DNA of 64,000 nt, from contig OZ247426.1 in the NCBI GenBank assembly GCA_965232835.1, forward strand, positions 1,628,974-1,692,973. Direction: 5' to 3'. The DNA is from Dehalococcoidia bacterium (GTDB lineage Bacteria > Chloroflexota > Dehalococcoidia > Lucifugimonadales > UBA3495). The notes under the pieces were generated by a model. That model ran no database searches. It saw only the letters and a program-made list of their open reading frames with translations, and had not been told where the DNA came from. Of the stretch, positions 5,371 through 35,394 are shown in pieces; the first letter of the stretch is position 1, and each line of letters starts with the position of its first letter. A program made the position numbers and the translations under genes.

Positions 5371-5371
<1 letters not shown>
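3911..5371 (-). CDS. csb2: Csb2 (Cas5-Cas6 fusion, GSU0054 family)
   Basis: 486-aa ORF. The N-terminus MIAIGIRYLTGWSMATD...EWPPHPDRIFMALADAH resembles Csb2. The GTG start overlaps the csb1 stop (TAGTG), and the gene sits between csb1 and cas3. Confidence 0.75.
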
Positions 5372-6567
<1,196 letters not shown>

Positions 6568-7564: not shown

Positions 7565-7597
7565 AGCCCCTGTCTTGTGAACAGGGGCTTTCCTTTG
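7565..7597 (+). terminator. intrinsic terminator-like hairpin
   Basis: Stem AGCCCCTGT, loop cttgtga, stem ACAGGGGCT, followed by TTCCTTTGG. Confidence 0.45.
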
Positions 7598-7635
7598 GTG
7601 ATTCTGGTGCCTGATCTTGCCGAATTGGCAACTTA

Positions 7636-8720: not shown

Positions 8721-8900
8721 TGTGCCCTGCGGCAACCTTCACCGGCCTTCTATCTCGTGACAAGCTACCAACCGCCCCGAAAAGGGAACGAAATGCCGAG
8801 GTTGGACGAAATCAGACCAGTCAGGGAAGGTGAATCTCGCCCCTTACCCATCGGTCAACCGTAATTCAGGCCACGATGGGCCTTGTTCAGAGTTTCCCTA
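7714..8900 (+). mobile_element. IS5-family insertion sequence, decayed; boundaries approximate
   Basis: Imperfect terminal inverted repeats: GAGGCAGAACTCTCACA (7714..7730) versus the reverse complement of TGTTCAGAGTTTCCCT (8884..8899). The size of about 1.19 kb fits the family, and it encloses the transposase reading frames. Confidence 0.55.
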
Positions 8901-8924
8901 GACGCGCCATCCTAGAGAGAGGCT

Positions 8925-12110: not shown

Positions 12111-13945
12111 CGTCTGGCTTCCCTCACTTTCCAAAGCGGCTCCCACACGGCGTCGAAATCCGCCCCAAGTAACTCGGCCCCTGCCTCGGTTTTCCGCAGT
12201 TCAGCCACCAGGGATGCCACTGCGTCCAACCGGTCCGGTCCACGGTGCAGGGTCTCAAGCATTCTCTCCATCAAACCCGGCGACGACAGGCTGGCGGCGA
12301 AATTCTTGCCAAAGTTTCCGAGGGACTGGTCGAATTCAGCAAATGTGAGGTCATCATCGGGCGACAGCAATAGCCAAAGCAATTGCATTAGTTGGGCTCG
12401 GTTGCTCAGCATACCGGCCAGCAACCGTGGGAGGCGGTCTTCAGGTAATCCGTTTAGTTCGATGGGTCTGACGAAGCGTTTGCGCGCGGACCTGCCATTC
12501 AGAGATGCCCGAATCTCTATGGCCAAAAAGCATGACAGCTCAGTGATCAACATTCCAGTAAATTCAGAACCATCTGCGAAAGGCTTGCTATGGGCGTCCG
12601 AGAGGGAAACCGGCCAGCAAGTTACGGTGCCGATAGCGGGTCCCAGGTGCACCGGTTCGGTGATTTCCAACCCTAAGACGTACCGATCTCCGTCTGCCTT
12701 AACCTGTCCCTTGACATCCACCCGCGCCAGGGAAGCGGCACCAGCCTCCATCGTAAGTTCAAGGTTGATGGCGTCCTCGTCCTCTGTAACCGTTCCCAGG
12801 TCCGACTTGTCGAAGGGTTCGATCAAGCTGCGAAAAGTCCCTGCATCGCTGTCCTTGCCGGGATTGAGGAATGTGTCTATGCCGAACTTGCTCTTCCTTC
12901 CCGACAACTCCACCATAAATTCGACATTGCACGGAACCCTGCCCATGGCTGCGGACGTAGAATTACCCGACCCTACAACCAGCCTTACATTCCAGCCGTC
13001 GTCGATTACGAACACCTTTGCATGCAGCCCGCCCAGCGGAGCCAGGTCCGCCTCCCCATCTTCTGGCTCCAGTTCAAGCCCCGCTTTGAAAGAAAAGATT
13101 TCGGTGAAGCCAGATAGGGCGCCTCGGGGAGCGGTCAGCAAAGCGTCGCGCCTACTCACCAAGAATGATTGGGGACGCCTCTCTGCCATAGACCGCAGGA
13201 ACTCCCCTCCCAGGAACGGAGAGACCACCAGAATTGGCCGACTTTTGAGGTCGGGGAAATCGGGGTTGACGCTGCCCAAGCCGAATGACCAGAAGCGTTC
13301 GATCTCAAGACCTTTGGGGGGATGAAACCTTACACGTTGCAGCTCATCTGCGCAGAGTTCTACGAGTTCTCGTTGGGAGCCCGACATGGGCCGGCAAGCC
13401 AACCCAGGAAGCAAGCGGAAGAAGTCCGACAGCGGCCTGTTTTGCGAAAAACCCCTAACCCGGTGCTCCATTAGTTCGCCATCGAGTACGAGCGAAGTGT
13501 CCCAAGAAGCATCGAAAGTAAGGTTGCGTGACTGGCAAACCAGACGGTACCGCGCGGGCTGCTCCTCCGCTAAATAGCGCAACGCCCATACCTTTGGATG
13601 GAACACCGCCTGAGTTTCATCCACCCTTGGCGGTAGCGCGGTTACCACGGACTGTTCCAGGAACGCCAAAGCGGGTTGGCGGGTTCGTGGCACCGATGTC
13701 TGTCCACCGTGGCAAAAAAGTACGATGCGCCCAGCGTGTCGCCGGGCACTCTCCAAAAGAGCCAGCGGGTCTGAAGCCAATTGGCCGTTACGGTCTTGGG
13801 CATCCGCGAATGTGAACGCCAGGGGTACCGACAGCAACGCCAACAGGTCCAGGGTGTAAGTTGTGCCTACGGCTAGATCGAAGGTATATCCTTCGGGAGG
13901 GCGAAGGGATTCCAGGAAGAGCCGACGATTCCCGGGTTCGAGCAT
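12107..13945 (-). CDS. phospholipase-D-family nuclease with two HKD motifs
   Basis: First motif FHPKVWALRY; second motif LHAKVFVIDDGWNVRLVVGSGNSTSAAMG (the HxK..D..GSxN signature). The ATG at 13945 (MLEPGNRRLF) lies 5 nt after the upstream gene's stop. Confidence 0.85.
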   Translation of the reverse strand: MLEPGNRRLFLESLRPPEGYTFDLAVGTTYTLDLLALLSVPLAFTFADAQDRNGQLASDPLALLESARRHAGRIVLFCHGGQTSVPRTRQPALAFLEQSVVTALPPRVDETQAVFHPKVWALRYLAEEQPARYRLVCQSRNLTFDASWDTSLVLDGELMEHRVRGFSQNRPLSDFFRLLPGLACRPMSGSQRELVELCADELQRVRFHPPKGLEIERFWSFGLGSVNPDFPDLKSRPILVVSPFLGGEFLRSMAERRPQSFLVSRRDALLTAPRGALSGFTEIFSFKAGLELEPEDGEADLAPLGGLHAKVFVIDDGWNVRLVVGSGNSTSAAMGRVPCNVEFMVELSGRKSKFGIDTFLNPGKDSDAGTFRSLIEPFDKSDLGTVTEDEDAINLELTMEAGAASLARVDVKGQVKADGDRYVLGLEITEPVHLGPAIGTVTCWPVSLSDAHSKPFADGSEFTGMLITELSCFLAIEIRASLNGRSARKRFVRPIELNGLPEDRLPRLLAGMLSNRAQLMQLLWLLLSPDDDLTFAEFDQSLGNFGKNFAASLSSPGLMERMLETLHRGPDRLDAVASLVAELRKTEAGAELLGADFDAVWEPLWKVREARR

Positions 13946-13950
13946 TGGGC

Positions 13951-15186
13951 CTACTCTAGGGGTTCCAGGATGTCGGCCGCTATCCGCTGCACCTGGGACC
14001 ATCTGAAATTAAGGCGACCGGAAGCGGGATAGCCGCGACGAATGTCCCTAGCATCGTCATAGGTTAAACGGGCCCGTCTTCCCTTCAACGCAAGCTCCCG
14101 TTCACGCAGGAGTCGTTGGACACCGGCCTGTAGTTCGCGCTCCAATCGAAGCCGAGTCATATCCATCACTAATGCGTACCAGCGGTCTGCGAACGCAATT
14201 GTGGCCGTCCGAAGCCGGGGGTTGGCACTCCGTAGGCGCCGCCACATTGCGGCCCGGTCCCACTGTGCCAGGTGGTCCCGGTACTCTTGAACCTCCGCCA
14301 GCCAATTGGCCAAGTCGGCGGTGAATGCACTGATATATCCATCGTCCTCCAACGCTTCAGCCAGCATCACGTTGTACAGGATTGCCGCTCCCTGGTGAAC
14401 CAAAGAGAACAAAGCTGCATCGTCAAGCCATGCCGCCAGCGCTGGCGGGGCTGAGCTCGCCGAAAAATGCTCCCATGGGTAATTCGCTTCCCAAATAGTA
14501 CTAACATCCCCTTCGCGAAATATGTGAGCCAAGAAAGATTGCGGGTGCTTGAGCTCAATGCAGTCCCGAAGGAAACGTCCTTCCTCCTGGGTCAAGTCGA
14601 AAGAGGCCTTCTCAGGAAAGTCTCCGGGAATCGGAGGCAGCGCCGCCCACCGTCCCGGCACTTCATCGGCAGACTCGTACTGCCGGTCTTCAACGGGATC
14701 TGCGGGTGCCCAAGTTGCCCTCATTAAGGCGGTTGGCCGTCGCTGAGTCGGTCCGGATTTTGCGGTGGCTGCGGATTCTTTGCGGATTCCCCACCGTTCG
14801 AGGCCCACCCAATAGATTTGGCTCGGCCAACGGCGCAGCGATGCTCTTGCCTGCCTTCCGATGACCCCGGCGCCCGCGCCGTGGGATTTGTCCAGTGCTT
14901 CGCAAAGTCGCAACTCTAGCTGCCTCGCCAGGCGGTTAGAATTTGTCTCCGCCGTGGCTTCGACCATCTGCAAGATCCATGGTATAAACAGAAAATATCG
15001 AGCGCGGGTCTGGATAGTGCTCGTACCAGGGAAAAGGGTATCCGCGATGGTGTCTCGGATACTGCCGATGCCAAGTTCGTCGAGAGTCCCCGGCTCGTTT
15101 AGCGCGGAAACTAACTCCATTACTGCCCGGCGCTCGCTCTCACTACTGTCCAGCCAGCTGAGTGTCGAGTTGAATGTGGAAGTCAT
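13951..15186 (-). CDS. DUF6361-like protein, first gene of the PLD/helicase operon
   Basis: 411-aa ORF. The N-terminus LSWLDSSESERRAVMELVSALNEPGTLDELGIGSIRDTIADTLFPGTSTIQTRARYFLFIPW matches my recollection of the DUF6361 family, which is usually found with PLD and helicase genes. Confidence 0.6.
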   Translation of the reverse strand: MTSTFNSTLSWLDSSESERRAVMELVSALNEPGTLDELGIGSIRDTIADTLFPGTSTIQTRARYFLFIPWILQMVEATAETNSNRLARQLELRLCEALDKSHGAGAGVIGRQARASLRRWPSQIYWVGLERWGIRKESAATAKSGPTQRRPTALMRATWAPADPVEDRQYESADEVPGRWAALPPIPGDFPEKASFDLTQEEGRFLRDCIELKHPQSFLAHIFREGDVSTIWEANYPWEHFSASSAPPALAAWLDDAALFSLVHQGAAILYNVMLAEALEDDGYISAFTADLANWLAEVQEYRDHLAQWDRAAMWRRLRSANPRLRTATIAFADRWYALVMDMTRLRLERELQAGVQRLLRERELALKGRRARLTYDDARDIRRGYPASGRLNFRWSQVQRIAADILEPLE

Positions 15187-15299
15187 CCTGTGTTAATTCA
15201 CCCCTACTTTTCAATAAGTAACCTCTTCCCTGCCTCACCTGCTCAAGTTTCCCAATTTTCCAGCTATCTTGTCATGTCATGTCAACTGACGTTGTAATC

Positions 15300-16223
15300 C
15301 TAAACCAAACCCAAGGTGGGATGTGCATTTGCCTGAGGTGAGGAATCGTGCTGTGAATTTAGCTGGAGTGCCTGGGCCCTTGACTGCAATACCGTCCGGC
15401 AACGCCGTCTCACCGCGTCCTTCCGGTTGGCCAGACCAGCCAGGAAGTTGCCGACCCTCTCCTGCACCGCTTCCCTGGTCCCCAAGCAGAGATTGCCGGT
15501 GGGCTCCTCTCCCGCCCAGCCCCAGATGGCCTCATCGGCATTGAAGTCCGGGCTGTAGCCCGGTAGATTAACCAACCGTAGGTCAAGTCCGGGCGTCCGC
15601 AGATATTCCCGCACCGCCTCGCCACGGTGGGCTGGCGCGTTGTCCCAGATGATCTTGGGCGGGCCAGGGTGTTTTCTCCGCAGTTGTTCCAGGAAGGTAA
15701 CCGAGGTCCCGCTGTTGCTGTTGCCCTCCAGTTCCATCCATTCCACCTCGCCCGTCTCCAGGCACACCGCCGAATAGTAGCTGGTCTTCTCCCCGTACCT
15801 CGGACTGTTGGAGTTCACCAACGACGGCTGGCCCTGCAGCACCCACTTGCCCCGAAGCTCCGCGTCCGACCGGAAGTGGGCCTCATCAGCGAAGAATATC
15901 CTGGCTTCAGCCTGCCCAGCATCCTCCCTCGGTGCGACGTACTCCGCAACGAAGGCCTCCCGCTTGGCTTCATCCGCCTTGAGCAACCGCTTCTTGGGCC
16001 GCTTGAAAGCAGACCCCAAGCGGTGCAGGTAATTCATGCAACTGCTGTGGCACAGGCTGATGCCGTACCGGTCCGCCGCAAACCGGTGCACCACTTTCCA
16101 ATTCCAATTGGCCAAGCCGATGCCCACGGCCTCAGGCAATTCTTGCACCGCCCCTTTCAGCGCCGCTTGTTGCGCTTCACCGAGGGCGGGGGGCTAACGG
16201 GGGTAGGTTTTTCGCGGCATGTT
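15300..16223 (-). pseudogene. IS630-family transposase remnant: DDE domain intact, N-terminal HTH region lost
   Basis: The 282-aa ORF carries IS630-type DDE region motifs (FFADEAHF, IIWDNAPAHRG, LPGYSPDFNADE). Upstream reads MPRKTYPR-stop-PPALGEAQQAALKGAVQELPEA, so about 90 aa of the usual HTH part are missing. Confidence 0.7.
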
Positions 16224-16433
16224 GATCACTTTGATTTCGTTCGCTGACTCAGACTATCGTTTGCAAACGTAACCACCCGGTTTTCGTTCAGTCTCAAAGC
16301 TGGAGGGAGGCGACACTTGATTCCTGTGCATCCACCTGTTTGGTGCTTGAACTTTAACTGGCACTCCCAATCAGGGGCCTGACGGGAGGCTTCTCTTGTT
16401 CACAGCCCAACACTCACGTATGGTCCGCTTTCA

Positions 16434-17189
16434 TCACTGAGTTAGACCCAGCTGCGCTTCCAGTTCCCGTATCCGCGCCTCGGCGGCTAACCGGGCGGCT
16501 CTCTCAGCGTCGGAACGTTCCTCAGCGGCATTAGCCCGGGCCCACTCGCTGTCGGCGCGGTCGCGCTCGCTCTCCAAACTGGCAATGGGCGCGCCGGTAG
16601 CAGGGTCGTGGAACACTAACTCGCCCTCCTCCCAGCGCAGATGCAGGTTCAGCGCCGGGCTGTACCCCTGCAACACCCCATCAGGCAATTCCTCTATCTC
16701 AACGGGTTCGTACTCGTCGCCCACCAGCCGGTCCCCGGCCAGCCGCGCCTCTGAACTCCGTCCCCTCTCGTCAAATCGCCAGTACTCGCCTATCCCCAAC
16801 CGGGCATAGTCGACACGCTTGTCCACCCGATCCGTGCGCCCGCTGCTGGGCGACACCACCTCCAGTATCCAGTCCGGAGGCTTGCCCTGCTCCGAGATCA
16901 CGTAGGCGTTGCTGGCCCGGTAGGCCTGCGGGTCCGCCCCAAAGGCCACCAGCAGGTCGGGGTAGCGCACTCCCGCCAGGTTGCGGGTGGGCGCCAGGGC
17001 CAGGTAATGCTCTCCCGCCACCAGCGTGGTCTCCGGACTCCCCAAGTGTTCGATGAGCAGGTAAACGTTGCCGTTGGCGGCCAGGCGGTCAAAGCTGGTC
17101 ATCTTGTCGTCCGGGTCTTCCGGCGGATCGGGAAACACGATATGCTTCTCAACCGGAAGCGATTTGGCGAAGGTCTCGGGTGTGCTCAT
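16434..17189 (-). CDS. Uma2-family (DUF820) PD-(D/E)xK endonuclease with C-terminal coiled-coil tail
   Basis: YPDLLVAFGADP...GKPPDWILEVVSPSS...DYARLGIGEYWRFDE, followed by an Ala/Glu/Arg-rich tail. It is a paralog of 28137..28940. Confidence 0.8.
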   Translation of the reverse strand: MSTPETFAKSLPVEKHIVFPDPPEDPDDKMTSFDRLAANGNVYLLIEHLGSPETTLVAGEHYLALAPTRNLAGVRYPDLLVAFGADPQAYRASNAYVISEQGKPPDWILEVVSPSSGRTDRVDKRVDYARLGIGEYWRFDERGRSSEARLAGDRLVGDEYEPVEIEELPDGVLQGYSPALNLHLRWEEGELVFHDPATGAPIASLESERDRADSEWARANAAEERSDAERAARLAAEARIRELEAQLGLTQ

Positions 17190-17435
17190 CTTGCACCTGG
17201 CGCTTGCGGGGGTTGGTAGCCCCGTTGCAACATCGCGGTTTGCCTCCGTTGAGAGGCTTCATGTCATTGTGGAGATTCTACGCCGCCGGCCAGCCGTCGG
17301 CAAGGGAAACGGCGCGCGGGATGGTACCGGTCTGCGACAATTTCTGACCCTAAATGCGGATATTCAAACCCGGTCGTCTCAGGCGCTGATACCTGCCCGC
17401 TGACGGCGGCGTCATCCTGCTGCTACGCTCTTGGC

Positions 17436-17908
17436 ATGGTCCTCTCACGGGAACGTATCCTGGACGCCCCGGCCCAGCGGGTGAGCCACGGCACGGACCA
17501 ATTGCCCTCCAGCCACCGCTATTACCTCGCGAAAAAGGGCATCGCCGCAGGCTCCGGCGCCCTGGGCTTCGACGCGCAGTCGGAGTTCGCGCGGGCCCAT
17601 CCCGTGTCGCGGCAATGTCTGACCCTGCTGCTGCGCCGCCTGGACGCCAGGGCTTCGGTGTACGGCCAGGCGTCCACCCTCTCCCCCGGCGTGGACAGCC
17701 TGGAAACCCGTGTGGAGTTTCACCGCCGGGGCCGGTTGATGCGGTGATCACTCTCCACAATGGCCGCAGCTTCGGCGTGGCACGCCAGGGCCTTGACCAG
17801 CGGCGCCGCTCCCTCTACGACCAGTTGCGGGCCATCGCCGAGTACGGGTACCCGCGCCGCCCCGGCACGGTACTGGTCCTGACTCCAGCGTCTGGGAGCA
17901 GAGGTTGA
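17436..17908 (+). pseudogene. frameshifted fragment of a replication-relaxation-type gene (third copy)
   Basis: Two overlapping frames align to the middle of the 25.2-kb and 30.6-kb genes. HRYYLAKKGIAA...HPVSRQCLTLLLRRLDA corresponds to QRRYFPTDKGVTA...YPVSKQWFRLLSERLDA. ITLHNGRSFGVARQG...GTVLVLTPAS corresponds to ITLSGGRSLGIVRQG...TATLVITHSD. The DNA at 17395..17480 also matches 30296..30380. Confidence 0.6.
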
Positions 17909-18011
17909 CTACCTGGTAAGGACTGCTGCCCATCGGCGGTTTCGGGTTCCTCAACGTGGCCCTTGTCAACGTATCCTGTAGGCGAGAGCTGTTTGCTTGA
18001 CGGCGATCGGA

Positions 18012-18977
18012 CTAAACTCCGCTCTGCTCCGGTTGCTTCAGCAGTGCGGAACAGTCCCGCTCGTTCACCAGGTGGTTCACCGACACCCGGCCGTGGCTGT
18101 CGTAGCCGGTAGCGTAGGCGAATTCCACCTCGGCTCCCCAGGGGACCCGCCCGCCGGTCCGGATGGTGTCGCCGCCCGGCCCGCCGACTCCCTGGACCAC
18201 CACGCCGTTGCGGGAACCCTTCTTCCAGGCCATGACCTTGAGTTCCACGGGAGCAACCAGTTCCGCCGCCGACGGCGCGAACAGCACCTCGTGCAGACGC
18301 CGGAGCACGTCCCCCGAAGGGGTGCGCTGGCCGTTCATAATCTGGGAGAGATAGGAGACACTGATGCCCGCCCGCCGGGCCACCTCATTCTGGCTCCAAC
18401 CGTGAGCATCCATTCGCTCCCACAGGGCCTGAGGGTCCACGGCGGGAAGCTGGGCGGCCTCGACCTTCACGGGAGCCTCCAGGACGGACTCCATCCGTGC
18501 CTGGGCGGCGGGACTGAGGTTGCGCTGGCCCCGCGACACCTGCACCACGTAGCCGTAGCTCAGTCCCGTCCGGTCGGCCACCTGCCGCAGGGTCATGCCC
18601 CGCTCCCTGGCCAGCTCCCGAATGTAGGTGCTTTCACCGCCCTGGACCACGCCGCCCTGGCGGTAGACGATACCCTGACCGGGGACCTCGCCCAGGACCG
18701 CCATGGCCCTCTCCCGCAGCATGGGGGTCCAGGGCCTGCGCCCGTTGGCCACCGAGCACAGGTGGCTGTAGTTGACGCCCATCCTGTCGGCCAGTTGCTT
18801 GAGGGTGAGGCCGTGGCGCCTGGCGGCGGCCCGCAGTTCGTTCTCGGGCTTGCCCTGGCTGTGTCTCTTGTCCGCCGCGCCTTCCGTTTCCTGTGATACT
18901 GGTACCGCCGTGTTCGCGGGGATGTCGTTGCCGTTGTACATTGCCTTGGTGGTGTCGATGCTGGTAGTGGCCTTCAT
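18012..18977 (-). CDS. transcriptional regulator with tandem XRE-type helix-turn-helix domains
   Basis: Several HTH_3-like units (LTLKQLADRMGVNYSHLCSVANGRRPW, MTLRQVADRTGLSYGYVVQVSRGQRNLS, WSQNEVARRAGISVSYLSQIMNGQRTPS). A GGAGG lies 8 nt upstream of the ATG. Confidence 0.8.
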   Translation of the reverse strand: MKATTSIDTTKAMYNGNDIPANTAVPVSQETEGAADKRHSQGKPENELRAAARRHGLTLKQLADRMGVNYSHLCSVANGRRPWTPMLRERAMAVLGEVPGQGIVYRQGGVVQGGESTYIRELARERGMTLRQVADRTGLSYGYVVQVSRGQRNLSPAAQARMESVLEAPVKVEAAQLPAVDPQALWERMDAHGWSQNEVARRAGISVSYLSQIMNGQRTPSGDVLRRLHEVLFAPSAAELVAPVELKVMAWKKGSRNGVVVQGVGGPGGDTIRTGGRVPWGAEVEFAYATGYDSHGRVSVNHLVNERDCSALLKQPEQSGV

Positions 18978-19000
18978 GTCGCTTCCTCCGAAACGCAGAA

Positions 19001-19041
19001 AGCGGGGGCCGGTCTCGAATCGAACGAGACCGGCCCCCGCT
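19001..19041. terminator. strong GC-rich hairpin (17-bp perfect stem), likely a terminator or attenuator
   Basis: Stem AGCGGGGGCCGGTCTCG, loop aatcgaa, stem CGAGACCGGCCCCCGCT. On the minus strand it is followed by TTCTGCGTTT. It lies between the small ORF 19138..19347 and the HTH gene start. Confidence 0.55.
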
Positions 19042-19137
19042 TTGCTGTGAGCTGTGTATTTTCAGTCTTTGGTGCGGCTCACCTTGGGCCGCCGTTGGTT
19101 CACGCCGTCTCTCGCAGGAGAGAGGCGAGGCCTGGGG

Positions 19138-19347
19138 CTATCGTCGGTTCACCCCTTCCTCCGGCATTCCGGTGGTGCAGGGAGAACCCGGGCCAATGTT
19201 CGTGATGATCACCTCCTGGTTCTTGTGGTTGTGGCAGTTGTCGTCGCCGTGGCCGTGATTGCTGCCGGTGGCGACGACGACGGCTGAGCCGTTCCCGTCT
19301 TGTGCCGCAGACGCACCGTGCCCTGGGTCGGGATTGCCATGGAGCAC
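19138..19347 (-). CDS. small His/Cys/Gly-rich hypothetical peptide (69 aa); coding status uncertain
   Basis: GTG-initiated ORF ...GSNHGHGDDNCHNHKNQEVIITNIGPGSPCTTGMPEEG, followed about 100 nt downstream by the strong hairpin. No clear RBS. Confidence 0.25.
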   Translation of the reverse strand: MLHGNPDPGHGASAAQDGNGSAVVVATGSNHGHGDDNCHNHKNQEVIITNIGPGSPCTTGMPEEGVNRR

Positions 19348-19941
19348 GCCGATTTCAGACTTGGCGCAAGGCGCACGTCTCCCACGACAGGTTGACCCAC
19401 GGGAAACGCCGGAAGGGGGGTTGGCGCAAGGCGGAGTCCGGCCAGGGTGTTATTCCGTAGCTGCTGCCTTGGGAATAATGAGGGGAGCAAGGGTGAACGC
19501 GGTCCGGCCAATGGCCGGGTTTTCAGCTACCGACCTGATGGCAACCGTGTTGCAACGTCAAGCGTCCGGGCCGCCGTCTTTGACCGCGAACCGGAGCGTA
19601 GAAATCCTGCGGCGCCGTCGCTGCTATTCGGCAGCTACGCCGCAGTGGTGATGAGCGGCCTGAGCCTGGTGTCGTCCGCTCCGACCGCAGGGTGAAGATT
19701 GCGAAGCCGGTTCAACCGCTCCGCCAGGTGGACCCGGTGGGTGAGGGAATCCGGGATGCCGTGCTGTTTCTCTAAGCCACCTCCTGAACCAGGATAATCT
19801 GCCGTTGGGTGGTATTCCGCGCCTTTGGATTGGGCTGCCTGCAGAAGCGCACCGTGCGCCTCGATGAGTTGGGTAAACCGGCTGGAGCGAAAGCGTCAAC
19901 TGCGCCAACGCCTCAGCTACGTCCCTCGCGGACGGCCATCG

Positions 19942-20761
19942 GGAGAGCAAGGCTCGATCCTTTTGGTAAGTCCAACGCGGGCGGCCGTTCGGAGAGCGAG
20001 GCTCGATCCTATGCGGCCGGACCCGGGTCCAGGGACGGGACCCTCCAGGTTTCTATGGCGGGAAACGCTGGAAAAAGCCTGACAACGCAAATTAGTATCC
20101 GGCCCCGCCCAAGGCCTTGGCAATACCTTCGCGGCCCCGGCGTCCCAAGTGTTGCCTTTATTTGACCCGAACTCTAAGCGCACTTCCGGCGCCGGAGCAG
20201 TTCACCTCCCTGCGTCAGTTCGTTGGATAGGGATACCGCCTTGGGTTTGGATACCGGGTGGAACGCGCCGTGCGCTCCGATTGGGCTGGGTTCCGGCCGG
20301 GACGGGAGTGTCAACCACTACAGCCGCCCCAGCGATGGCGGGAAAGGAAGCATTGCTTAAACGCTCCATTCCCTCCGCCAGTGGCCGGAGCGATCAACTC
20401 CGGTTACCACCTGGCGGGTGCCCAGCAGCCGGAGCGATCAACTCCGGTTACCACCTGGCGGGTGCCCAGCAGCCGGAGCGATCAACTCCAACCGCCGGAC
20501 GGGTGTCCAACGACCGGGGGACCAACGTCAAACCCCGACCGGAGGACTGGACCGAGGACGGAGGACTTGAACACTCCGCCGGTTCGGCCCGCGCTGCCAG
20601 CGGAGAGCAATCTCAAATCCGCAGCGGCAGCATTCCCTCGTGGGCGACCCTTCCGGAGAGCAACCTCAAATCCGTCAGGTCATGCCCGGGCAACAGGGAT
20701 CGTGCCCCCAAGATTTCTATGGCGGGAAACCTCGGAAAAGCCAGACAACGAAATTAGTATC
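19942..20761. repeat. dispersed repeat modules in a non-coding region
   Basis: Two modules of about 240 bp, at about 19925..20165 and about 20580..20830. Each has a pair of 19-nt cores: GGAGAGCRAGGCTCGATCC at 19942 and 19991, and GGAGAGCAAYCTCAAATCC at 20602 and 20655. Each pair is followed by a conserved block TTTCTATGGCGGGAAAC...GGAAAAGCC.GACAACG.AAATTAGTATC (20050..20099 and 20714..20761). Confidence 0.8.
20384..20489. repeat. perfect 44-bp tandem repeat, 2.4 copies
   Basis: The unit GCCGGAGCGATCAACTCCGGTTACCACCTGGCGGGTGCCCAGCA occurs at 20384..20427 and 20428..20471, with a partial third copy. Its first 17 nt resemble the 19-nt cores of the flanking modules. Confidence 0.9.
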
Positions 20762-20888
20762 ACCTCGCCCGACAGCGAAAAGAAAGGGTTTGGGAGCCCC
20801 GGAGCCCAAAGTGTTCAATCCAGTTCATAAAAACTTATACAATAGTTACACAAAAATTTACTGATGCCGTCAGCGGCCCGCAGCGTCC

Positions 20889-21356
20889 CTATCTCCGCCA
20901 TCGCGCCGGGGTGAACCAGCGCCGGACCCTGAGCCAGAATTCCCGCCTGGCCCGCGCCTTCCGGGTGTCGTCCAGCGCCGTCCGGCGCCAGCTTATCTGG
21001 CCGCTGCGGGCGAAACCCCGCAGGGGCCGATGCTCCGGCGGCAGGGTCAGCCCGTGCTCCTCCAGCAGCGCCAGTTCCACTTCCAACAAGCGCTGTTGGT
21101 TATTCAGCCACGCCAGCCCCCTGCCCTTGGTGGGGTGGGAATCCTTCATCTCTCGCCACTCTACGACCAAGGGCCAAACGTCGCCGAACACCTGCGCATC
21201 GTCGTTCGCAGGCTCCAGCGTCGCCAGGTCGGGATACTCCCGCCTCTGCATGTGATTCTTTGTGGCTCCGGCTGGCTCTGCATTGCTCCAGCCTGGGTTC
21301 CCCTGACCAGCGTCTGCGCCGGTCTGTCCGACTCCCTGGTCCTCCCCGGTCCTCAC
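20889..21356 (-). CDS. hypothetical protein; possibly the C-terminal half of one frameshifted gene together with 21360..21723
   Basis: The protein-like sequence YPDLATLEPANDDAQVFGDVWPLVVEWREMKDSHPTKGRGLAWLNNQQRLLEVELALLEEHGL begins at a GTG inside the open frame of the upstream ORF. Confidence 0.4.
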   Translation of the reverse strand: MRTGEDQGVGQTGADAGQGNPGWSNAEPAGATKNHMQRREYPDLATLEPANDDAQVFGDVWPLVVEWREMKDSHPTKGRGLAWLNNQQRLLEVELALLEEHGLTLPPEHRPLRGFARSGQISWRRTALDDTRKARARREFWLRVRRWFTPARWRR

Positions 21357-21359
21357 TGC

Positions 21360-30006: not shown

Positions 30007-30587
30007 GGCGGGAGCGCCCAGACACGCCGGTCAGCCCGTTGAATTCACCCAGCGTTTGACGTGCATGACGCGCCGGAATTGACGCTTGATGACCTGAAAG
30101 CCCGGCCCTCGGATTCGGCCTCCCGGAATATCCTGCGGTTGATGGCGAGGAGATTCTCGCCGCCCTGCCGATCAAGGACCTAATCGTAGAACATCTACAC
30201 GCTGTTTAGCATCTTTGGACCGGCGCTGTCTGGAGGCAGACCCGTACCGCCGACATCCGCGCGTACACCTGCTGCCCATGTGCCCTCCCCGGTGACACCT
30301 GCCTGCTGACGGCGGCCGCCCCCGGCTGCTACGCTGGAAGTACGATTCTTCACGCCAGCGCCTCCTGGACGCCCTGGTCCGGCTGCCCTTTGGTCAACAA
30401 CGGCGAACTGGCCCTGACCCGGGGCGAACGGCCGGCAACGGTCCACGCGCCCTGGCCTTGGCTGGCTGAAAGACGGCCTCGCGCATACCACAAAACTCGT
30501 CCAAACGTAATTCCTTGGAGGGCATCATGTGCAAGCAATTTCTCCCGGACAATGAAACCTTGGCCCATTGCGCCATGAGGAATGCGT

Positions 30588-32609
30588 ATGCAAACGAAGC
30601 AGTCGGCAACGCCGGCGCCGACCAATATCACGAAAGAGGAAGACCAGGGTCTCCACGACGCCACCCGCCGCTACGTGCAGGCCCACCAGCAGCGACACGG
30701 ACAACGGAAGACCGCCGAGGCCCTGGGCGTATCCCGCCACACCCTGTGGCGCTACCTGGAGCGAGGCCAGTCTGGGCGCGCCGTGCCCGCCGCCGTTATG
30801 AACTCCGTGGGCAAGAACGTCCGGGACATTGAGGCGGCCACGCTGGAGATCATCATCGACCTGGAGGGGCTGCGTCCCGACCCGGCCCTGCGCCCCCTGC
30901 GCCGGAGACTGGAGGGCGCGCTGCTGCTGGTGTGCGCCACGCCCCTTGCTACCGTGGATGAACTGGCCCGCTTTGAACGTGTTCCCGCATCCACGCTGCG
31001 CGAGCGGCTGGACAAGCTGGTCAACCGCGGCCTGGTGGATACCGCATCCCACCACCTGGGCGCCCTGGGATCACGCCCCCAGCGCCGCTACTTTCCCACG
31101 GACAAAGGCGTCACCGCCGCCGGCGCCGCCACCCAGGGCCGCAAGCACATGCTGACGGCCTACCCGGTATCGAAGCAGTGGTTCCGGCTGCTGTCCGAGC
31201 GACTGGACGCCGTGGCGGTGCTCTACCGCGTCGCCGCCATGGTGGCCGATGCCGACCAGCATCAAAACCCGGTGCGGGTGGACCACTACCGCCACGGCCC
31301 CTACGATCTGCTGCTCACTCTGTCCGGGGGCCTTACCATCGGCGTGATACGCCACGGACCGGCATTGCCCGGCTCCAACCTGCGCTACCGGCTGCGCAGC
31401 ATCGAGCATCTGCCCAGCGGCGAGAGGCCCTTCCTCACCCTGGTACTGACCCACGCCGACCAGGCAACCCGCCGGGCCGTACGCGCCCTGGGCGACCCCA
31501 CGGAACACCGCCGAACTTTCGTCGCCACCGAGGGAGAGCTGCTGGCCGGGGATCACACCGGCGTGGTCTGGCAGCAGTGCGGTAGCGGCCTGGGCCAGGA
31601 CCCTCCAGTGAACATCGCGCCCGAGACCAGCCTGGCGGCCATCCTGCCGTGGGCGGAGGGACTGCTGGACTCGTCCCACCAATCCCGGCGCGACGACCCC
31701 AGGCCCGACCCCGACGCGATCTATCCCGACGGCGTGCAAGCATCCATGCCGGAGCCCGCCCAGCAACTGGCGTCGTCCCTGGCGGTGCAACTGACCCGGG
31801 CCGAGAAGGACGCGCTGGACCTGCTTTGCGCCTGGCCGTTGTGCACCCGGCAGCAGCTGGCCGGACTGATGGGCGGCGTCACCCTGCGCCGGGTCAACCA
31901 GGTGCTCCGCTCGCTCCGGCAACACGACCTGGTTCGGGAGGACGATTCCCGGCTCACGCTCACCGATCGGCGGCTGACCTGCCTGGCCCGCCGGGACCGG
32001 GCCGCCGTGGGCCTCATCCTGGACCGCTGGACCGCCCAGCCCTCCCTCTCCAACCCATCGGTCTACGCCGGAAGCGCCCTGCGCGCCCTGGCCTCCCAGA
32101 TGAGCCACCACTGCGGCGTGACCAACTTTGCCGCCGGCCTGAGCGCCGAGGTGGCCCGTTCCCAGGATTACGACCTGTTCGACCTGCTGCCGACCCACCG
32201 CGGCAGCATCGGATACCGCTGCCACCGGACCAACTACGTGATCCATCCCGACGCCTCCTTCACCCTGGAGTACAAAGGCAAATGGCTTCCCTTCCTGCTG
32301 GAGTTCGAGCGAAGGGCCACGACACCCCAACGCATTCCCCAGCGGCTGGCGTCCTATCAACGCTACTTTCAGAGCGGCTGGGCCCAACGGGACCACGGGG
32401 GCCGCCTGCCCGTGGTGCTGTTCGTGTTCGAGACTCCGGAGAGCGAGGCGGCCTTCCTGGACGTGTCCGACGGCACGGAGGGGCTGGACGTGATCACCTC
32501 CAACGCGGAGGCACTGGCGGAACGGGGCGTCCTGGGGGAGGCGTGGACATTTCCGCCGCCCCACCCCCTGGACCGTATGCCGGTGGCCGGATTGTACCCA
32601 GTTCCATAA
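30588..32609 (+). CDS. replication-relaxation family protein (copy 2)
   Basis: Colinear with 25181..27202 (LGVSRHTLWRYLERG...IHPDASFTLEYKGKWLPFLLEFERRATTPQRIPQRLASYQRYF...LPVVLFVFET). It is preceded by the same conserved leader of about 100 nt. Confidence 0.7.
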   Translation: MQTKQSATPAPTNITKEEDQGLHDATRRYVQAHQQRHGQRKTAEALGVSRHTLWRYLERGQSGRAVPAAVMNSVGKNVRDIEAATLEIIIDLEGLRPDPALRPLRRRLEGALLLVCATPLATVDELARFERVPASTLRERLDKLVNRGLVDTASHHLGALGSRPQRRYFPTDKGVTAAGAATQGRKHMLTAYPVSKQWFRLLSERLDAVAVLYRVAAMVADADQHQNPVRVDHYRHGPYDLLLTLSGGLTIGVIRHGPALPGSNLRYRLRSIEHLPSGERPFLTLVLTHADQATRRAVRALGDPTEHRRTFVATEGELLAGDHTGVVWQQCGSGLGQDPPVNIAPETSLAAILPWAEGLLDSSHQSRRDDPRPDPDAIYPDGVQASMPEPAQQLASSLAVQLTRAEKDALDLLCAWPLCTRQQLAGLMGGVTLRRVNQVLRSLRQHDLVREDDSRLTLTDRRLTCLARRDRAAVGLILDRWTAQPSLSNPSVYAGSALRALASQMSHHCGVTNFAAGLSAEVARSQDYDLFDLLPTHRGSIGYRCHRTNYVIHPDASFTLEYKGKWLPFLLEFERRATTPQRIPQRLASYQRYFQSGWAQRDHGGRLPVVLFVFETPESEAAFLDVSDGTEGLDVITSNAEALAERGVLGEAWTFPPPHPLDRMPVAGLYPVP

Positions 32610-33060
32610 ATACAATTTCCCTGCGCCGGGGATTTCCTGTAGGGGTGGTCCAACGGCCACGATTGGACAAAATTCCCGCAACTTGCCGCCATCGTGTCCC
32701 GTTACATCCCCGCCACTGCAATGTGTTGCAGGGCCGATGCGTCAGGCCGCCACCGCAGAGATACCATACTCAACCAACCGGGTATGCAATCCAGGTACGA
32801 ATGCCAGCGACAAACACCGGGCCACGGAATCTGTCCGATAGGGACAAGATGACGTCGAGCGTGTCCAAAAGGGTCAGCGGAGCCGTTCCCTGGGCTTCCA
32901 ACAGTGCCCAAAAGGGAAGCCGTTATCATTCCTGTGTCTGCGTGCAACAGGTCGAAAGGGTGCGAAATGTTGCAGGTCGTGGACCCGGCGGACACGCTCG
33001 TCATTCTCCGCCGCCGGCGTGCCGAACATCGGTTGTCCGCTGTCATACAGTAAGACAACG

Positions 33061-33069
33061 TGGTATAAT
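33061..33069 (+). promoter_or_regulatory. extended -10 promoter element for the RHH-recombinase operon
   Basis: TGGTATAAT (TGnTATAAT) lies 21 nt upstream of the AAGGAG RBS of the RHH gene. Confidence 0.4.
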
Positions 33070-33089
33070 TGGTAATGCAAGGAGCGTTC

Positions 33090-33317
33090 ATGGCCCCCCT
33101 GATATCCAGGAACACCGAGACCGTCACTTTCTCATTGCCCCCGCCTATGGCCCAGAGCCTGAGGCAAGTGGCGAAGGAGGAGGAGCGCACCGTGAGCGAG
33201 CTCTTGCGGGAGGCCATCCGCCTCTACATGGAGGAACGGGAGTGGCGCGTGAAGGAGCGGATGCAGCGGCGGTCCCGCCGGGCGAGCGAGGCTGAGACTA
33301 CGGGAGACGAAACATGA
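33090..33317 (+). CDS. ribbon-helix-helix (CopG/ParD-like) DNA-binding protein
   Basis: MAPLISRNTETVTFSLPPPMAQSLRQVAKEEERTVSELLREAIRLYMEE has the classic beta-strand plus two-helix RHH pattern. Its stop overlaps the recombinase start (ATGA). Confidence 0.7.
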   Translation: MAPLISRNTETVTFSLPPPMAQSLRQVAKEEERTVSELLREAIRLYMEEREWRVKERMQRRSRRASEAETTGDET

Positions 33318-35008
33318 ACGAGAGCAGCAAAGGAGGCGAGATGAAAAACCGGCAGTTCCAACCCCTGACCCCGGCGGCCCTCTACGCCCGGGTCTCCAGC
33401 GACCGCCAGGACGTGGACCTGTCCGTGGCCGCCCAATTGCGGGCGCTCAGGGACTACGCCAAGAGCAACGGCTACGCCGTGGCCCGCGAGTACGTGGACG
33501 AGGCCGAGAGCGGCAGAATCGCCGACCGGCCCCAGTTCCGCCGGATGATCGATGAGGGGAGCAAGGCTGCGGCCCCGTTTGAGGTGATTCTCGTTTGGAA
33601 ATTTTCAAGATTCACCCGCAAGCGCGAACACGCCGTGGCCTTCAAGTCCATGCTCCGCAGGAAGGGCATCCGCGTGGTGTCCATCACCGAGCACGCCGAC
33701 GACTCCCCCACCGGCAAGCTGATGGAGGCCATCATTGAGTCCGTGGACGAGTTCTACTCGGAAAATCTTGCCGAAGAGGTAAAGCGGGGGATGCGGGAGG
33801 CCGCCTCCCGGGGCTACTTCCTGGCCTCCAAGGCCCCCTTCGGCTACAACCGCATCAAGGTCAGCGACGGGGTAAAGGACCGCCCCACCCTGGAGGTTGA
33901 CCCGGCGGCCGCCCCCATAGTCAGGGAGATATTCGAGAGCTCCCGCCGGGGCAACGGGCTGGCGGAAATCTGCAAGGAACTGAACGGCCGGGGCATCACC
34001 AACCGGGGCAGGCGCTGGCAGAAGAACGTCATACACTACCTGCTGACCAATGAAGCCTACACGGGGACGGCCGTTTGGGGAGTCAAGAGCAAGGACGAGA
34101 AGGCGGGAGAGCCGGTGCGAGTGGAGAACGCCTGGCCCGCTCTGGTGTCCCGGGAGACTTTCGAGGCGGTGCAGCAGGGGTTGCACCAGCGGGCGCCCAC
34201 GGTGGCGCGGCCCGGACGGGTGGGGAGCCAGTACCTGCTGAGCGGTCTGCTCCGCTGCGGTGTGTGCGGCAAGCCCTATTCGGCCCAGGGAGCCAAGAGC
34301 GGCCGGTTCGCCTACTACGTCTGCGCCAGCCTGTTCCGCGAGGGAGCGGGAGCGTGCAGCAACGGGCGCTACCTGAACGCCACCAAGGTGGAGGACCTGG
34401 TGATCGAGAAGGTCAGGGAGCGGATACTCACCGAGGAGACCATCACCGAGTTGGTGACCCTGGTGGCCGAGGAGATCGACAACCTGGCCGGTGAGGTCAA
34501 CGGCAGGCTGACCGCCATCAACAGCGAGCTATCGGACGTGGACACCCGGTTGGAGAATCTCTACCAGGCGTTGGAGACCAAGCAGTTGCCCATTGAGGTG
34601 ATCTCGCCCCGCATCCTGTCCCTGAAGAGCCGCCAGGACCAGCTTACGGCGGCGCGGGAGGGGGCCGAGGCCCAGTTGGAGCAGCGGCGGGCGGAGTTGC
34701 CCACCAGCAGGGAGATCAAGGGGTACGTGGCTGACTTCCGCGCTCTCTTCCAAGATGGGACGTTCCCGGAGCGGAAGGCCCTCATTCGCAACTTCGTGCA
34801 GGGCATTGAGATCGTGGAGGACGAGGCGGTTCTGACGTACACCATCCCCATGCCGCAGGATGGAGTGACGTCGGAATCGGCCTCGGTTCTTGATTTCGTC
34901 CAGTCCGGCCCAGCTGACTGGGATCGAACTAATGCCCAGTGCTTCAGGGTCGAGGGTCGCGGACCAACCAATCTTCTTCCCAAAACCATTCCGACCTTAC
35001 GGTTATGA
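33314..35008 (+). CDS. large serine recombinase (resolvase N-terminal domain, recombinase domain, zinc ribbon, coiled coil)
   Basis: AALYARVSSDRQD catalytic serine motif, ...VILVWKFSRFTRK, GLLRCGVCGKPY...YYVCAS zinc ribbon, and a C-terminal coiled coil. Confidence 0.9.
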   Translation: MNESSKGGEMKNRQFQPLTPAALYARVSSDRQDVDLSVAAQLRALRDYAKSNGYAVAREYVDEAESGRIADRPQFRRMIDEGSKAAAPFEVILVWKFSRFTRKREHAVAFKSMLRRKGIRVVSITEHADDSPTGKLMEAIIESVDEFYSENLAEEVKRGMREAASRGYFLASKAPFGYNRIKVSDGVKDRPTLEVDPAAAPIVREIFESSRRGNGLAEICKELNGRGITNRGRRWQKNVIHYLLTNEAYTGTAVWGVKSKDEKAGEPVRVENAWPALVSRETFEAVQQGLHQRAPTVARPGRVGSQYLLSGLLRCGVCGKPYSAQGAKSGRFAYYVCASLFREGAGACSNGRYLNATKVEDLVIEKVRERILTEETITELVTLVAEEIDNLAGEVNGRLTAINSELSDVDTRLENLYQALETKQLPIEVISPRILSLKSRQDQLTAAREGAEAQLEQRRAELPTSREIKGYVADFRALFQDGTFPERKALIRNFVQGIEIVEDEAVLTYTIPMPQDGVTSESASVLDFVQSGPADWDRTNAQCFRVEGRGPTNLLPKTIPTLRL

Positions 35009-35067
35009 CCGCGTTGCGAAACGCGAGATTGACCCTTCTCGAGAACATATCCAGTTGCCCTATCGAT

Positions 35068-35394
35068 TCAGGAGCGACTCAACCTCCACCAACGGTCTTC
35101 CTTCACCCAAGCTTCCTGGTCGCGGTTCCATCCGATTTTCTGGATGGTCTGGCGGATGATATCCAGTCGGTACACCCTGTCCCCGAATAGCGTGGCCCGG
35201 ACGTTCAGGTATCCCCTTGCGCCGTGCTTGAGGTGGAAAGTGCACCGAGGCGTTGCTACTGTGTTGGCATACCGGTATCGGCCTCCGAGCGTACCGGTGA
35301 TGTAGAGGCGGCTGTCAATGTCGTGGAACCGTTTTTCCGTGCGGCGGCAATGCCCGGTTTTCCGTCCGGTGGTGGTGTCGATGTTGCGGTCCAA
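35068..35394 (-). CDS. nitroreductase/quinone-reductase (deazaflavin-dependent, DUF385-type) family protein, apparently N-terminally short
   Basis: IDTTTGRKTGHCRRTEKRFHDIDSRLYITGTLGGRYRYANTVATPRCTFHLKHG resembles the TTGRKSG...FH..G..YI.G core of this family. It has a TTG start, with an in-frame stop only 7 codons upstream. Confidence 0.5.
   Translation of the reverse strand: MDRNIDTTTGRKTGHCRRTEKRFHDIDSRLYITGTLGGRYRYANTVATPRCTFHLKHGARGYLNVRATLFGDRVYRLDIIRQTIQKIGWNRDQEAWVKEDRWWRLSRS

Follow-up and report, generated by a model that had tools for sequence, protein, structure and literature searches.

A composite island of putative mobilizable elements with a large serine recombinase in a Dehalococcoidia genome

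This study concerns a stretch of DNA from an uncultured Dehalococcoidia bacterium in which a large serine recombinase (LSR) lies downstream of two long genes of the Replic_Relax type, here called RR1 and RR2. We analysed a window of 64 kb (64,000 nt; contig OZ247426.1, assembly GCA_965232835.1), and all coordinates are positions within it. Our results suggest, with a probability that we put at roughly 0.7, that the region is the right two-thirds of a 27.4-kb island that was built by the accretion and decay of integrative and mobilizable elements (IMEs) abundant in Dehalococcoidia. The right-end core, 30290-34936, is apparently the only complete mobility core and the only one with a recombinase. 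From their gene content, the elements are best read as IMEs and not as replicons like the actinomycete integrative and conjugative elements (AICEs); their excision, nicking and transfer are predictions.

In our model, the right-end core would consist of a captured promoter, the nickase or relaxase RR2, a 460-nt origin of transfer (oriT)/operator with a promoter, a CopG-like ribbon-helix-helix (RHH) protein and the coupled LSR. The LSR would act on a site of ~52 bp whose core copies the 3' end of a tRNA, and one arm of this site together with the core would be the 3' end of the LSR open reading frame (ORF) itself. After excision, the relaxase may nick the conserved region, and the circle could then be replicated and/or handed to the transfer machinery of a helper. 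A helper would be needed because the window has neither a coupling protein nor a secretion system. We propose that everything else between the attachment (att) sites is carried passively: an RR1 module without an LSR, two 5' remnants of a second Replic_Relax family (RR'), an XRE module of a third element type, three insertion sequence (IS) copies, and the cargo genes ZacABC, two Uma2 genes and PNPOx.

For comparison, a scan of species-representative genomes gave 79 loci; gene-presence counts, made by tblastn with the window proteins, are out of 80 loci. L001-L080 are relative loci with genes of the RR670 family, to which RR1 and RR2 (673 aa) belong, and L081-L084 are relatives that share the right flank of the window. 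RR' is a separate Replic_Relax family of ~545-590 aa. X and Y are two mirror-image flavours of recombinase and att site, X' and Y' are att arms, and Z is the target-type arm on the right of the window. The Pfam cutoff is 25.3 bits for PF13814 (Replic_Relax) and 27 bits for HTH_17. Likely genes in the window, which has ~62% G+C, were chosen by third-position G+C bias, and tRNA genes were called with ARAGORN.

The recombinase, its proposed attachment sites and the extent of the island

The LSR contains three domains, Resolvase (117.7 bits), Recombinase (78 bits) and Zn_ribbon_recom (54.2 bits), and the serine motif YARVSSDRQ. Its nearest named recombinase family is CcrB. Judging from the ATGA overlap, the RHH gene is translationally coupled to the LSR gene, as an earlier note on this DNA had described for the 564-aa protein. 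The best-supported RHH start is the ATG at 33090, which lies behind an AAGGAG site (33079-33084) and an extended -10 box.

The spacer between RR2 and the RHH gene has TTCCTGTAGGGG at 32634-32645 followed by a hairpin, GTGYCCAAAAGGG repeated twice, an inverted repeat TGCAACA/TGTTGCA at 32943-32974 and a promoter with the extended -10 box TGGTATAAT at 33061-33069 (TATAAT). Many of its columns are invariant in an alignment of 13 loci, and the hairpin has compensatory changes. We propose 32610-33060 as a candidate oriT/operator. A structured RNA in the spacer was also considered and was ruled out by weak folding energy and little covariation. The RHH protein and an HTH_17 ORF downstream of RR1 are candidates only for a directionality factor.

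Approximately the first 533 residues of the LSR are encoded by the element, and the last ~30 are read from flanking DNA. Nucleotide homology to the six closest loci (L002, L003 and L005-L008) stops at 34912-34929, 80-95 nt before the LSR stop codon. Att arm X and the core form the 3' end of the LSR ORF; thus, the island ends within this ORF.

The att sites of this family are ~52 bp long, with two 20-bp inverted arms that flank an asymmetric 12-nt core. In the X flavour the core copies a tRNA 3' end (GGCCCACCA). The X and Y' arms are alike at 13 of 20 positions; Y' is GGTTCTGTCTACCGTCAAGT, next to a core NTGGTGG.... Element arms carry GAAC at positions 16-19, and target arms (tRNA T-loops and Z) carry TCGAAC with GAAC at 10-13, 6 bp closer to the core. 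An offset of this kind, close to half a turn of the helix, separates the boxes of attP and attB half-sites in serine integrases.

When the window was searched for X, Y', core, T-loop-like and W-type sequences, only two complete sites emerged, at 7442-7493 and 34885-34936. The left site reads Y' (GGTACTGCCTACCGTCAAGT), core (CAGGCCCACCAA) and X' (ACTGGATAAAATCAAGAACT), and each of its arms is expected 0.00-0.01 times by chance. The same Y'-core-X' class occurs in L002, L028, L030, L049, L050, L052 and L068. The right site reads X (GGTTCTTGATTTCGTCCAGT), core (CCGGCCCAGCTG) and Z (ACTGGGATCGAACTAATGCC). The two cores share GGCCCA, which is compatible with a common crossover point.

Similarity to the left end of the L048 element, which is X-type and complete, covers X' and ~20 nt of interior sequence (7494-7512). 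On the other side of this site, the 35 nt to the left of Y' (7442) resemble the interior of Y-type left ends in L049 and L052. Based on the two att sites, the homology breakpoints and the likeness to L048, we place the island at ~7468 to ~34915, a length of 27.4 kb. The left limit at 17200 that had been drawn in the earlier note finds no support, as there is no att site there. We predict that attP is X-CCGGCCCACCAA-X' and that the target was Y'-CAGGCCCAGCTG-Z, so that the circle junction would be GGTTCTTGATTTCGTCCAGTCCGGCCCACCAAACTGGATAAAATCAAGAACTTTTCAC (containing GTCCAGTCCGGCCCACCAAACTGGATAAAATC) and the healed site would be GGTACTGCCTACCGTCAAGTCAGGCCCAGCTGACTGGGATCGAAC.

From the arms of the left site, we propose that the island meets, head-to-head, the left end of a Y-type element oriented to the left, toward type I-G cas genes. 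The cas genes form a type I-G/U CRISPR-Cas effector set at 858-6567 on the minus strand (Cas3g, 805.9 bits; Csb2, Cas_GSU0054; Csb1, Cas_GSU0053), and no CRISPR array was found within the window. Their position just inside the apparent left end of the Y-type element suggests that they might be its cargo.

Relaxase-like proteins and a second Replic_Relax family

RR1 and RR2 are 55% identical. As the earlier note had described, they are colinear paralogs with a helix-turn-helix (HTH), two winged helices and a Replic_Relax core: Pfam finds in both an HTH at the N-terminus, two winged helices (one MarR-like, one Crp/TrmB-like) and, at the C-terminus, a match to PF13814, which for RR2 scores 37.5 bits. 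The winged helix ahead of the catalytic core is marked by HTH_Crp_2, TrmB and MarR matches at residues 420-463. A structure prediction for the C-terminal 279 residues of RR2 (pLDDT 82, pTM 0.84) also displays a winged helix, with numerous MarR structural matches. The motifs P554-D555 and L571-E572-x-E574-R575-R576 of RR2 are invariant in 37 sequences spanning the RR670 and RR' families, and the P-D and L-E-x-E-R-R motifs sit on adjacent strands in the model. An internal duplication of a nuclease module within RR670 was ruled out, since the detectable likeness is limited to the winged helices (E 7e-4).

PF13814 has been assigned to the PD-(D/E)XK nuclease fold (PMC3424549) and is the Pfam counterpart of the CONJscan MobC relaxase class (PMC5357655). 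In TraX, the MOB_C prototype, a winged helix at the N-terminus accompanies an endonuclease-like active site, and relaxosomes usually include RHH proteins as helpers (PMC12857230). Mobilizable elements with a coupling protein of their own typically have MobC relaxases (PMC5704250). As PF13814 is the MOB_C family, a relaxase-like gene is present in the island. We conclude from these motifs and models that RR1 and RR2 are probably site-specific nickases of the MOB_C type, which may act in transfer, in rolling-circle copying or in both. The earlier note had seen no transfer ATPase, relaxase or phage gene; this holds for the ATPase and for phage structural genes, but relaxase-like MOB_C genes are there.

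Homologs of RR2 of ~670 aa gave >1184 matches, and the few named ones are replication-relaxation family proteins of Chloroflexota. RR2 is 79-92% identical to its relatives in other genomes and only 55% identical to RR1. Thus, RR1 and RR2 are not a recent internal duplication.

RR' proteins (>3190 matches) are ~545-590 aa long, or ~662 aa with an extra XRE domain, score 33.9-40.3 bits against PF13814 and are only ~30% identical to RR1 and RR2. In L003 and L056, the full RR' gene and the end of another gene overlap; the latter matches TrwB_AAD_bind and TraG-D_C and, by these domains, encodes a coupling-protein-like ATPase.

Two remnants of RR' lie in the island. The first combines a promoter-like conserved sequence (17384-17429) with a frameshifted 5' pseudogene (17436-17908) that matches the N-terminal part of the L006 RR' protein in two frames by tblastn (52% over 151 aa and 74% over 54 aa). 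Matches to 17384-17908 in 13-16 loci fall within full RR' genes. This fragment is, by homology, a remnant of a partner-type element. The earlier note had taken it as a third copy of the RR1/RR2 gene: it is indeed decayed, frameshifted and of the Replic_Relax type, but it belongs to the other family.

The second remnant, 30290-30480, has a -35-like CTGACG, a 17-nt spacer and a -10-like TACGCT, and RR' matches by tblastn at 30294-30446 (47% over 51 aa). The stretches 17384-17478 and 30290-30383 match each other (repeats D7 and D12), as had been noticed before. The 5' remnant of RR' with its common promoter-like sequence upstream of RR2 explains this repeat.

Homology of the window with L001 and L002 begins at 30293. 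We considered a 4.6-kb 'mini-element' at 30293-34929 and rejected it because the left junctions differ by ~10 nt and there is no recombinase-type arm. Exchange of modules at the conserved promoter is the more likely origin of these shared starts.

Could the 673-aa proteins be replication initiators of small AICE- or plasmid-like integrative replicons, so that the region would hold three replication modules at one recombinase site and no mobilization? Pfam describes PF13814 as replication-relaxation, plasmid replication is among the roles given for it in Table 1 of the PD-(D/E)XK survey (PMC3424549), and the window lacks transfer genes. However, PF13814 is the CONJscan MobC class, and the sister family RR' is coupled to a coupling-protein-like ATPase. 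The hallmarks of AICEs, an FtsK/TraB translocase and a Rep of the RepSA or prim-pol type, are absent; the third 'module' is of the other family, and a recombinase accompanies just one module. The roles also do not exclude each other, as relaxases of integrated elements often start rolling-circle copying too. We therefore consider this explanation unlikely, and prefer relaxases of mobilizable elements over the AICE- or satellite-like replication modules that had been suggested earlier.

Around RR1, which forms a separate sub-lineage, the RHH and LSR genes are missing. RR1-like genes of L008 and L075 have an RHH gene downstream, and that of L008 also has an LSR gene. The excisionase-like HTH reported earlier in the conserved region 3' of RR1 is present, but its HTH_17 score of 25.8 bits is just below the cutoff. 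Upstream of RR1, the duplicated small ORFs of the earlier note are real: they share a 52-nt stretch that is 90% identical, and a palindrome lies at 24643-24690. This small basic family, with the C-terminus GLRILARxIARAHLxRQ, is often found directly upstream of RR670 genes, with tblastn matches at ~9600-9760 in at least 12 loci.

Relatives, targets and the junctions between elements

The loci come almost entirely from metagenome-assembled genomes (MAGs) of Dehalococcoidia, often with two or three per genome. Some MAG names (RHO, APA, SB) we take to be those of sponge-microbiome bins. RR670, RHH and LSR form a conserved unit of constant order and spacing; RHH is found in 65 and LSR in 74 of the 80 loci. 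The DNA further upstream of this trio varies among loci and is often defence-related, for example Mrr/ResIII in L001 and a methyltransferase with a NotI-like endonuclease in L028. Complete relatives span 7-16 kb, and one of 7.2 kb holds only a restriction-modification pair and the trio.

In most loci the LSR is of the second (Y) flavour. In 16 loci, the Y-flavour LSR ORF ends in the antisense CCA end of an intact tRNA gene, and seven anticodons are represented (Lys-ttt, Ala-tgc, Ala-ggc, Val-tac, Val-gac, Ile-gat and Met-cat). That Y-type relatives abut intact tRNA genes is thus seen directly, and their integration at tRNA 3' ends, which spares the gene, therefore extends to many different tRNAs. 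Beyond the tRNA junction, the LSR ORF reads on into whatever DNA follows. A third arm type, AGCGTACYGAAYTGCGAACT followed by TTTCGGTGGGAG, stands beside Y-type recombinase ends instead of a tRNA in L018, L019, L031, L044, L047 and L064.

The X flavour carries the Y core in the opposite orientation. L048 is a complete 16-kb X-type element, with a tRNA-Ile 3' end, core and X' arm on the left, and an LSR end with X arm and core. Two classes of junction between flavours were found: nine or ten tail-to-tail junctions, X-core-Y, in which convergent LSR genes overlap, and eight head-to-head junctions, Y'-core-X'. New elements usually accrete by insertion into the att sites of resident ones (PMC5704250), and both classes are the expected products when one flavour inserts into a resident att junction of the other. 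In L001, L022, L030, L035, L059, L063 and L076, the LSR gene of the trio is cut after ~100-160 codons by an element with a third LSR type (26-30% identical), at ~12.7-14.7 kb of the loci and at ~15.3-17.4 kb in L076. Thus, these elements also target the integrase genes of each other.

The junctions bear on another explanation, in which X and Y modules form one composite circle with two attP-like sites (X-core-Y and Y'-core-X'), either of which could be used. On this view, only the right half would lie in the window, and the type I-G cas genes would be part of a Y half with its recombinase and tRNA beyond the start of the window. Both junction classes do have element-type arms on either side with the orientation of the core kept, as reciprocal products would. 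Most resolved tail-to-tail pairs combine an RR670 partner with an RR' partner, the sequence left of 7442 agrees with the Y-type left ends noted above, and CcrB works with a second recombinase. However, single elements with both ends exist, as in L048, and Y-type left ends adjoin unrelated DNA in L021 and L051. Stepwise insertion into the tRNA-proximal att site of a resident gives identical junctions, and no cas homologs were found in the 80 loci. We regard the two-recombinase circle as very unlikely, and read the junctions as ordinary accretion.

The island is not core DNA, because the trio occurs in many contexts and next to different tRNAs, and because right-flank relatives lack the island. 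These relatives (L081-L084), in which HAD, luciferase-like oxidoreductase and F420H2 genes are ~77% identical to the right flank of the window, carry at the corresponding place an amidohydrolase gene and then a 180-nt 3' remnant of an LSR gene (at ~9.4-9.85 kb; 80-84% identical, without an X arm). In L082, another X arm and core lie 6 kb away, at positions 1-60. The LSR remnant suggests that this locus is a recurrent landing place. These comparisons agree with the reading of the earlier note that the island is a composite made by accretion of several related integrative elements, and they show that it is not a conserved syntenic core.

One locus, L077 (JAPPMC010000026.1), is from a MAG labelled Bryobacterales (Acidobacteriota) and has an RR670 gene that is 55% identical and convergent recombinases. 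Its name presumably places this MAG in the same sponge-derived series as one Chloroflexota MAG, and the locus reflects either cross-phylum transfer or a binning error.

Several results weigh against an island of mobilizable elements. No transfer machinery or helper is visible within the 64-kb window. RR1 scores 22.6 bits against PF13814, under the cutoff, so that the profile search proposed earlier bore out RR2 but not RR1. The top match in the PDB to the C-terminal model of RR2 is the restriction enzyme PaqCI, which is weak (E 5.7e-3), and is followed by MarR-type winged helices; no match reaches E 0.001. The structure prediction for full-length RR2 is poor (pLDDT 51). In PHROGs, RR2 matches phrog_9381, 'replication initiation by nicking' (E 1.6e-5), and such a nickase could serve replication and not transfer. 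The comparison with relatives that lack the island, which the earlier note had advised, revealed synteny but no clean empty site (attB), as the right-flank relatives have the extra amidohydrolase gene and the LSR remnant. In JGI metagenome contigs, exact patterns of the attP predicted for either flavour gave no match, though these patterns were perhaps too strict. The attR core departs from the family consensus at 3 of its 12 positions, which may mean that the site is decaying. The Z arm does not belong to a tRNA, and the window contains no tRNA or tmRNA gene and no Rfam match. Finally, 7468-17200 is joined to the rest of the island by the att sites alone, and its G+C differs (0.58 compared with 0.64). 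A tRNA fold of the Z region, judged by eye, was also ruled out as the stems do not pair.

Some of these results would fit a fixed, dead relic, that is, a defence island in which the recombinase, relaxase-like genes and att sites no longer function and the architecture reflects ancient events only. Besides the degenerate attR core and the lack of circular junctions in the JGI scans, the three IS copies, two pseudogene remnants and the recombinase-less module point in this direction. On the other hand, RR1, RR2, RHH and LSR are intact ORFs with catalytic motifs and a strong third-position G+C bias, and homology and anatomy suggest that the LSR, the nickase and the RHH protein may be active. Furthermore, in other genomes the relatives of RR2 at 85-92% identity lie in different surroundings, which implies that movement was recent. 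A dead relic is thus quite unlikely, and we retain an accreted island with one apparently complete mobility core.

Contents of the island and comparison with known systems

The features of the island are listed below, including the multi-XRE regulator, Uma2, PPOX-type and IS110 genes that the earlier note had already recognized.

Table 1. Features of the proposed island, with coordinates in the 64-kb window
Feature	Position	Strand	Remarks
Left att-type site	7442-7493		Y'-core-X'; proposed attL of X-type island
IS5-like DDE transposase	7926-8720	+	Pfam DDE_Tnp_1 102.5 bits, DUF772
ZacC-ZacB-ZacA, candidate defence operon (cargo)	8925-15186	-	PADLOC ZacC 940.8, ZacB 515.6, ZacA 375.6 bits
IS630-like DDE_3 transposase	15300-16148	-	Pfam DDE_3 78.9 bits, HTH_33
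Uma2 paralog	16434-17189	-	Pfam Uma2 60.9 bits
RR' remnant 1	17384-17908	+	Promoter-like sequence, then frameshifted 5' pseudogene
Multi-XRE regulator	18012-18977	-	Three to four HTH_3/XRE units; Pfam HTH_3 89.2 bits
Two conserved ORFs, 155 and 207 aa	20889-21723	-	tblastn matches in 7-8 loci
IS110-family transposase	21969-23324	-	Pfam DEDD_Tnp_IS110 113.8 bits, Transposase_20 85 bits
Paralogous small basic ORFs	23636-24022 and 24607-25011	+	C-terminus GLRILARxIARAHLxRQ
RR1	25181-27202	+	673 aa, MOB_C-like (Replic_Relax), separate sub-lineage; own RHH-LSR genes missing
Conserved region 3' of RR1	27210-27569	+	TTCCTGTAGGAG at 27218-27229 (candidate oriT box) and excisionase-like ORF
Excisionase-like ORF	27441-27569	+	42 aa, HTH_17 below cutoff
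Uma2 and PNPOx (cargo)	28062-28940 (Uma2), 28950-29558 (PNPOx)	+	Pfam
RR' remnant 2	30290-30480	+	Promoter and 5' end of RR', now upstream of RR2
RR2	30588-32609	+	673 aa, predicted MOB_C-like relaxase/nickase; HTH, two winged helices, putative PD-(D/E)XK core
Conserved non-coding region	32610-33089	+	~460 nt; proposed oriT/operator and RHH-LSR promoter
RHH (CopG-like)	33090-33317 (alternative start 33069)	+	Pfam RHH_1 31.6 bits; PHROG CopG-like repressor
LSR, X flavour	33314-35008	+	564 aa; start overlaps RHH end (ATGA)
Right att-type site	34885-34936	+	X (within LSR ORF)-core-Z

The ZacABC operon is complete and lies between the IS5-like and IS630-like transposases. Homologs that are 54-60% identical adjoin a decayed (frameshifted) RR670 gene in L062. 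The Uma2 gene at 16434-17189 is 73-80% identical at the nucleotide level to the Uma2 gene at 28276-28762, in inverted orientation (repeats I1-I4), and the Uma2-PNPOx pair is found upstream of RR670 in L005, L007, L008 and L076 too.

The XRE regulator and the two ORFs at 20889-21723, which have no match in Pfam, NCBIfam, PADLOC or PHROG, accompany the third LSR type in L022, L035, L059 and L063. By this association they are a remnant module of a third element type, here without a recombinase. A perfect 44-bp tandem repeat (2.4 copies, 20378-20489) lies between the XRE regulator and the ORF at 20889-21356. L002 is colinear with 18066-25406, fused directly to 30293-34929; thus, the body of RR1 and the Uma2-PNPOx block are dispensable. 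The IS110 copy is absent from the colinear stretch of L002.

The window contains no homolog of a coupling protein and no second recombinase or remnant of one, and no transfer gene was revealed when the remaining ORFs of the island and its surroundings were scanned with Pfam. No phage structural gene was found by Pfam, and of ten ORFs compared with PHROGs only two match, to the nicking-initiator family and to CopG/Arc-like repressors. To the right of the island, an IS5/IS1182-like transposase at 39341-40786 (+; DDE_Tnp_1_6, DUF772) has copies that are 45-47% identical within L012 and L075, so the right flank also bears mobile DNA. Further right, 46957-53976 (-) encodes a 2339-aa protein of fibronectin-III and Ig-like repeats and 59359-60762 (+) a sulfatase; such content is typical of sponge symbionts.

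The earlier note could fit the region to no described element family, but its architecture is that of IMEs assembled by accretion. Like described IMEs with a serine recombinase (PMC5704250, PMC5357655), the elements have their own recombinase and a putative relaxase, lack a mating pore, are small and carry cargo, and they form composite islands by insertion into the att sites of resident or decayed elements. Published examples include elements with a MobC (PF13814) relaxase, some of which also encode a VirD4-type coupling protein (PMC5704250, PMC5357655). Described serine-recombinase IMEs mostly insert within protein genes and disrupt them (PMC5704250), whereas the relatives studied here use the 3' ends of many tRNA genes, which are left intact. 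They also differ in their host, Chloroflexota, in a crossover within the recombinase ORF, in the two mirror-image att flavours and in a 673-aa putative relaxase with an extra HTH and two winged helices.

The RR proteins share with the MOB_C relaxases TraX of pAD1 and MobC of CloDF13 the PF13814 family, a putative PD-(D/E)XK-type pattern, a winged helix before the core and a nearby RHH gene, and RR' adds the coupling protein. This likeness is drawn through the Pfam profile and published descriptions. In contrast to TraX and MobC, the RR proteins are much longer and have a second winged-helix module, which is apparently inactive.

Within the same bacterial class, the Dehalococcoides ssrA islands use the CcrB-like recombinase DsiB, target the single tmRNA gene with 20-bp direct repeats and stack in tandem; some lack integration genes and have been interpreted as mobilizable (PMC3146451). 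They carry a six-gene module with DsiB, the small recombinase DsiA, and RecF-, ParB- and Mom-like genes, and no Replic_Relax gene (PMC3146451). Our family resembles them in its Ccr-related recombinase (~540 aa in the ssrA islands), in the use of the T-loop and 3' end of a tRNA-like RNA gene and in stacking. However, it uses many tRNA genes, has one recombinase per element, and its conserved partners are a putative relaxase and an RHH protein. In the window there is no tmRNA or tRNA gene and one recombinase gene, and the other families of the ssrA-island module were not found in Pfam scans.

The gene content fits neither an AICE nor a prophage or phage satellite. The island ORFs scanned with Pfam, NCBIfam or PHROGs include no FtsK/TraB translocase and no Rep of the RepSA, RepAM or prim-pol type, and no capsid, terminase, portal or tail gene was found among those scanned (Pfam; PHROGs on ten ORFs). 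With the large serine integrases of phages (phiC31, Bxb1, A118/LI and SPbeta SprA), the LSR shares the domain set, the serine motif, att sites of ~50 bp with inverted half-sites and the shift of a box by half a helical turn; the att sites described above have imperfect inverted half-sites, an asymmetric core and different box spacing in element and target arms. Unlike those integrases, the family targets tRNA 3' ends and the junctions of other elements and not one protein-coding gene, and one att arm lies within the coding end of the integrase. In the literature searched, of which our coverage was incomplete, neither this family nor any serine-recombinase element directed at tRNA 3' ends is described.

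In sum, the island is of an already known kind, a stack of serine-recombinase IMEs with MOB_C-type relaxases that grew by accretion. What is unusual is the targeting of tRNA 3' ends, the att arm within the recombinase ORF and the two mirror flavours. A broader hypothesis, which we offer tentatively and with slightly less than even confidence, is that the relatives form a large undescribed family of mobilizable elements in Chloroflexota. In this family, the coding end of the LSR would be half of the att site, the core would copy the tRNA end (GGCCCACCA), the T-loop box would be read as the target, and many tRNAs would be entered undamaged. The two mirror flavours would enter in opposite directions and dock into the junctions and recombinase genes of each other. 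In this way they could assemble themselves into head-to-head and tail-to-tail arrays that gather defence genes (restriction-modification, ZacABC, Uma2 and possibly CRISPR-Cas).

These results have several implications. They correct the habit in annotation of taking 'replication-relaxation' as a replication function only, and they extend the MOB_C-like proteins by thousands of long members, from a phylum that lies outside common plasmid datasets. They also point to a lineage of serine integrases with a generic natural target, the tRNA T-loop and CCA end, in place of the usual specificity for one gene, which is relevant to integrase engineering. Last, they offer a concrete model, open to testing, for the assembly of defence-rich islands in uncultured Dehalococcoidia, of which many appear to be sponge symbionts and in which gene transfer is little known.

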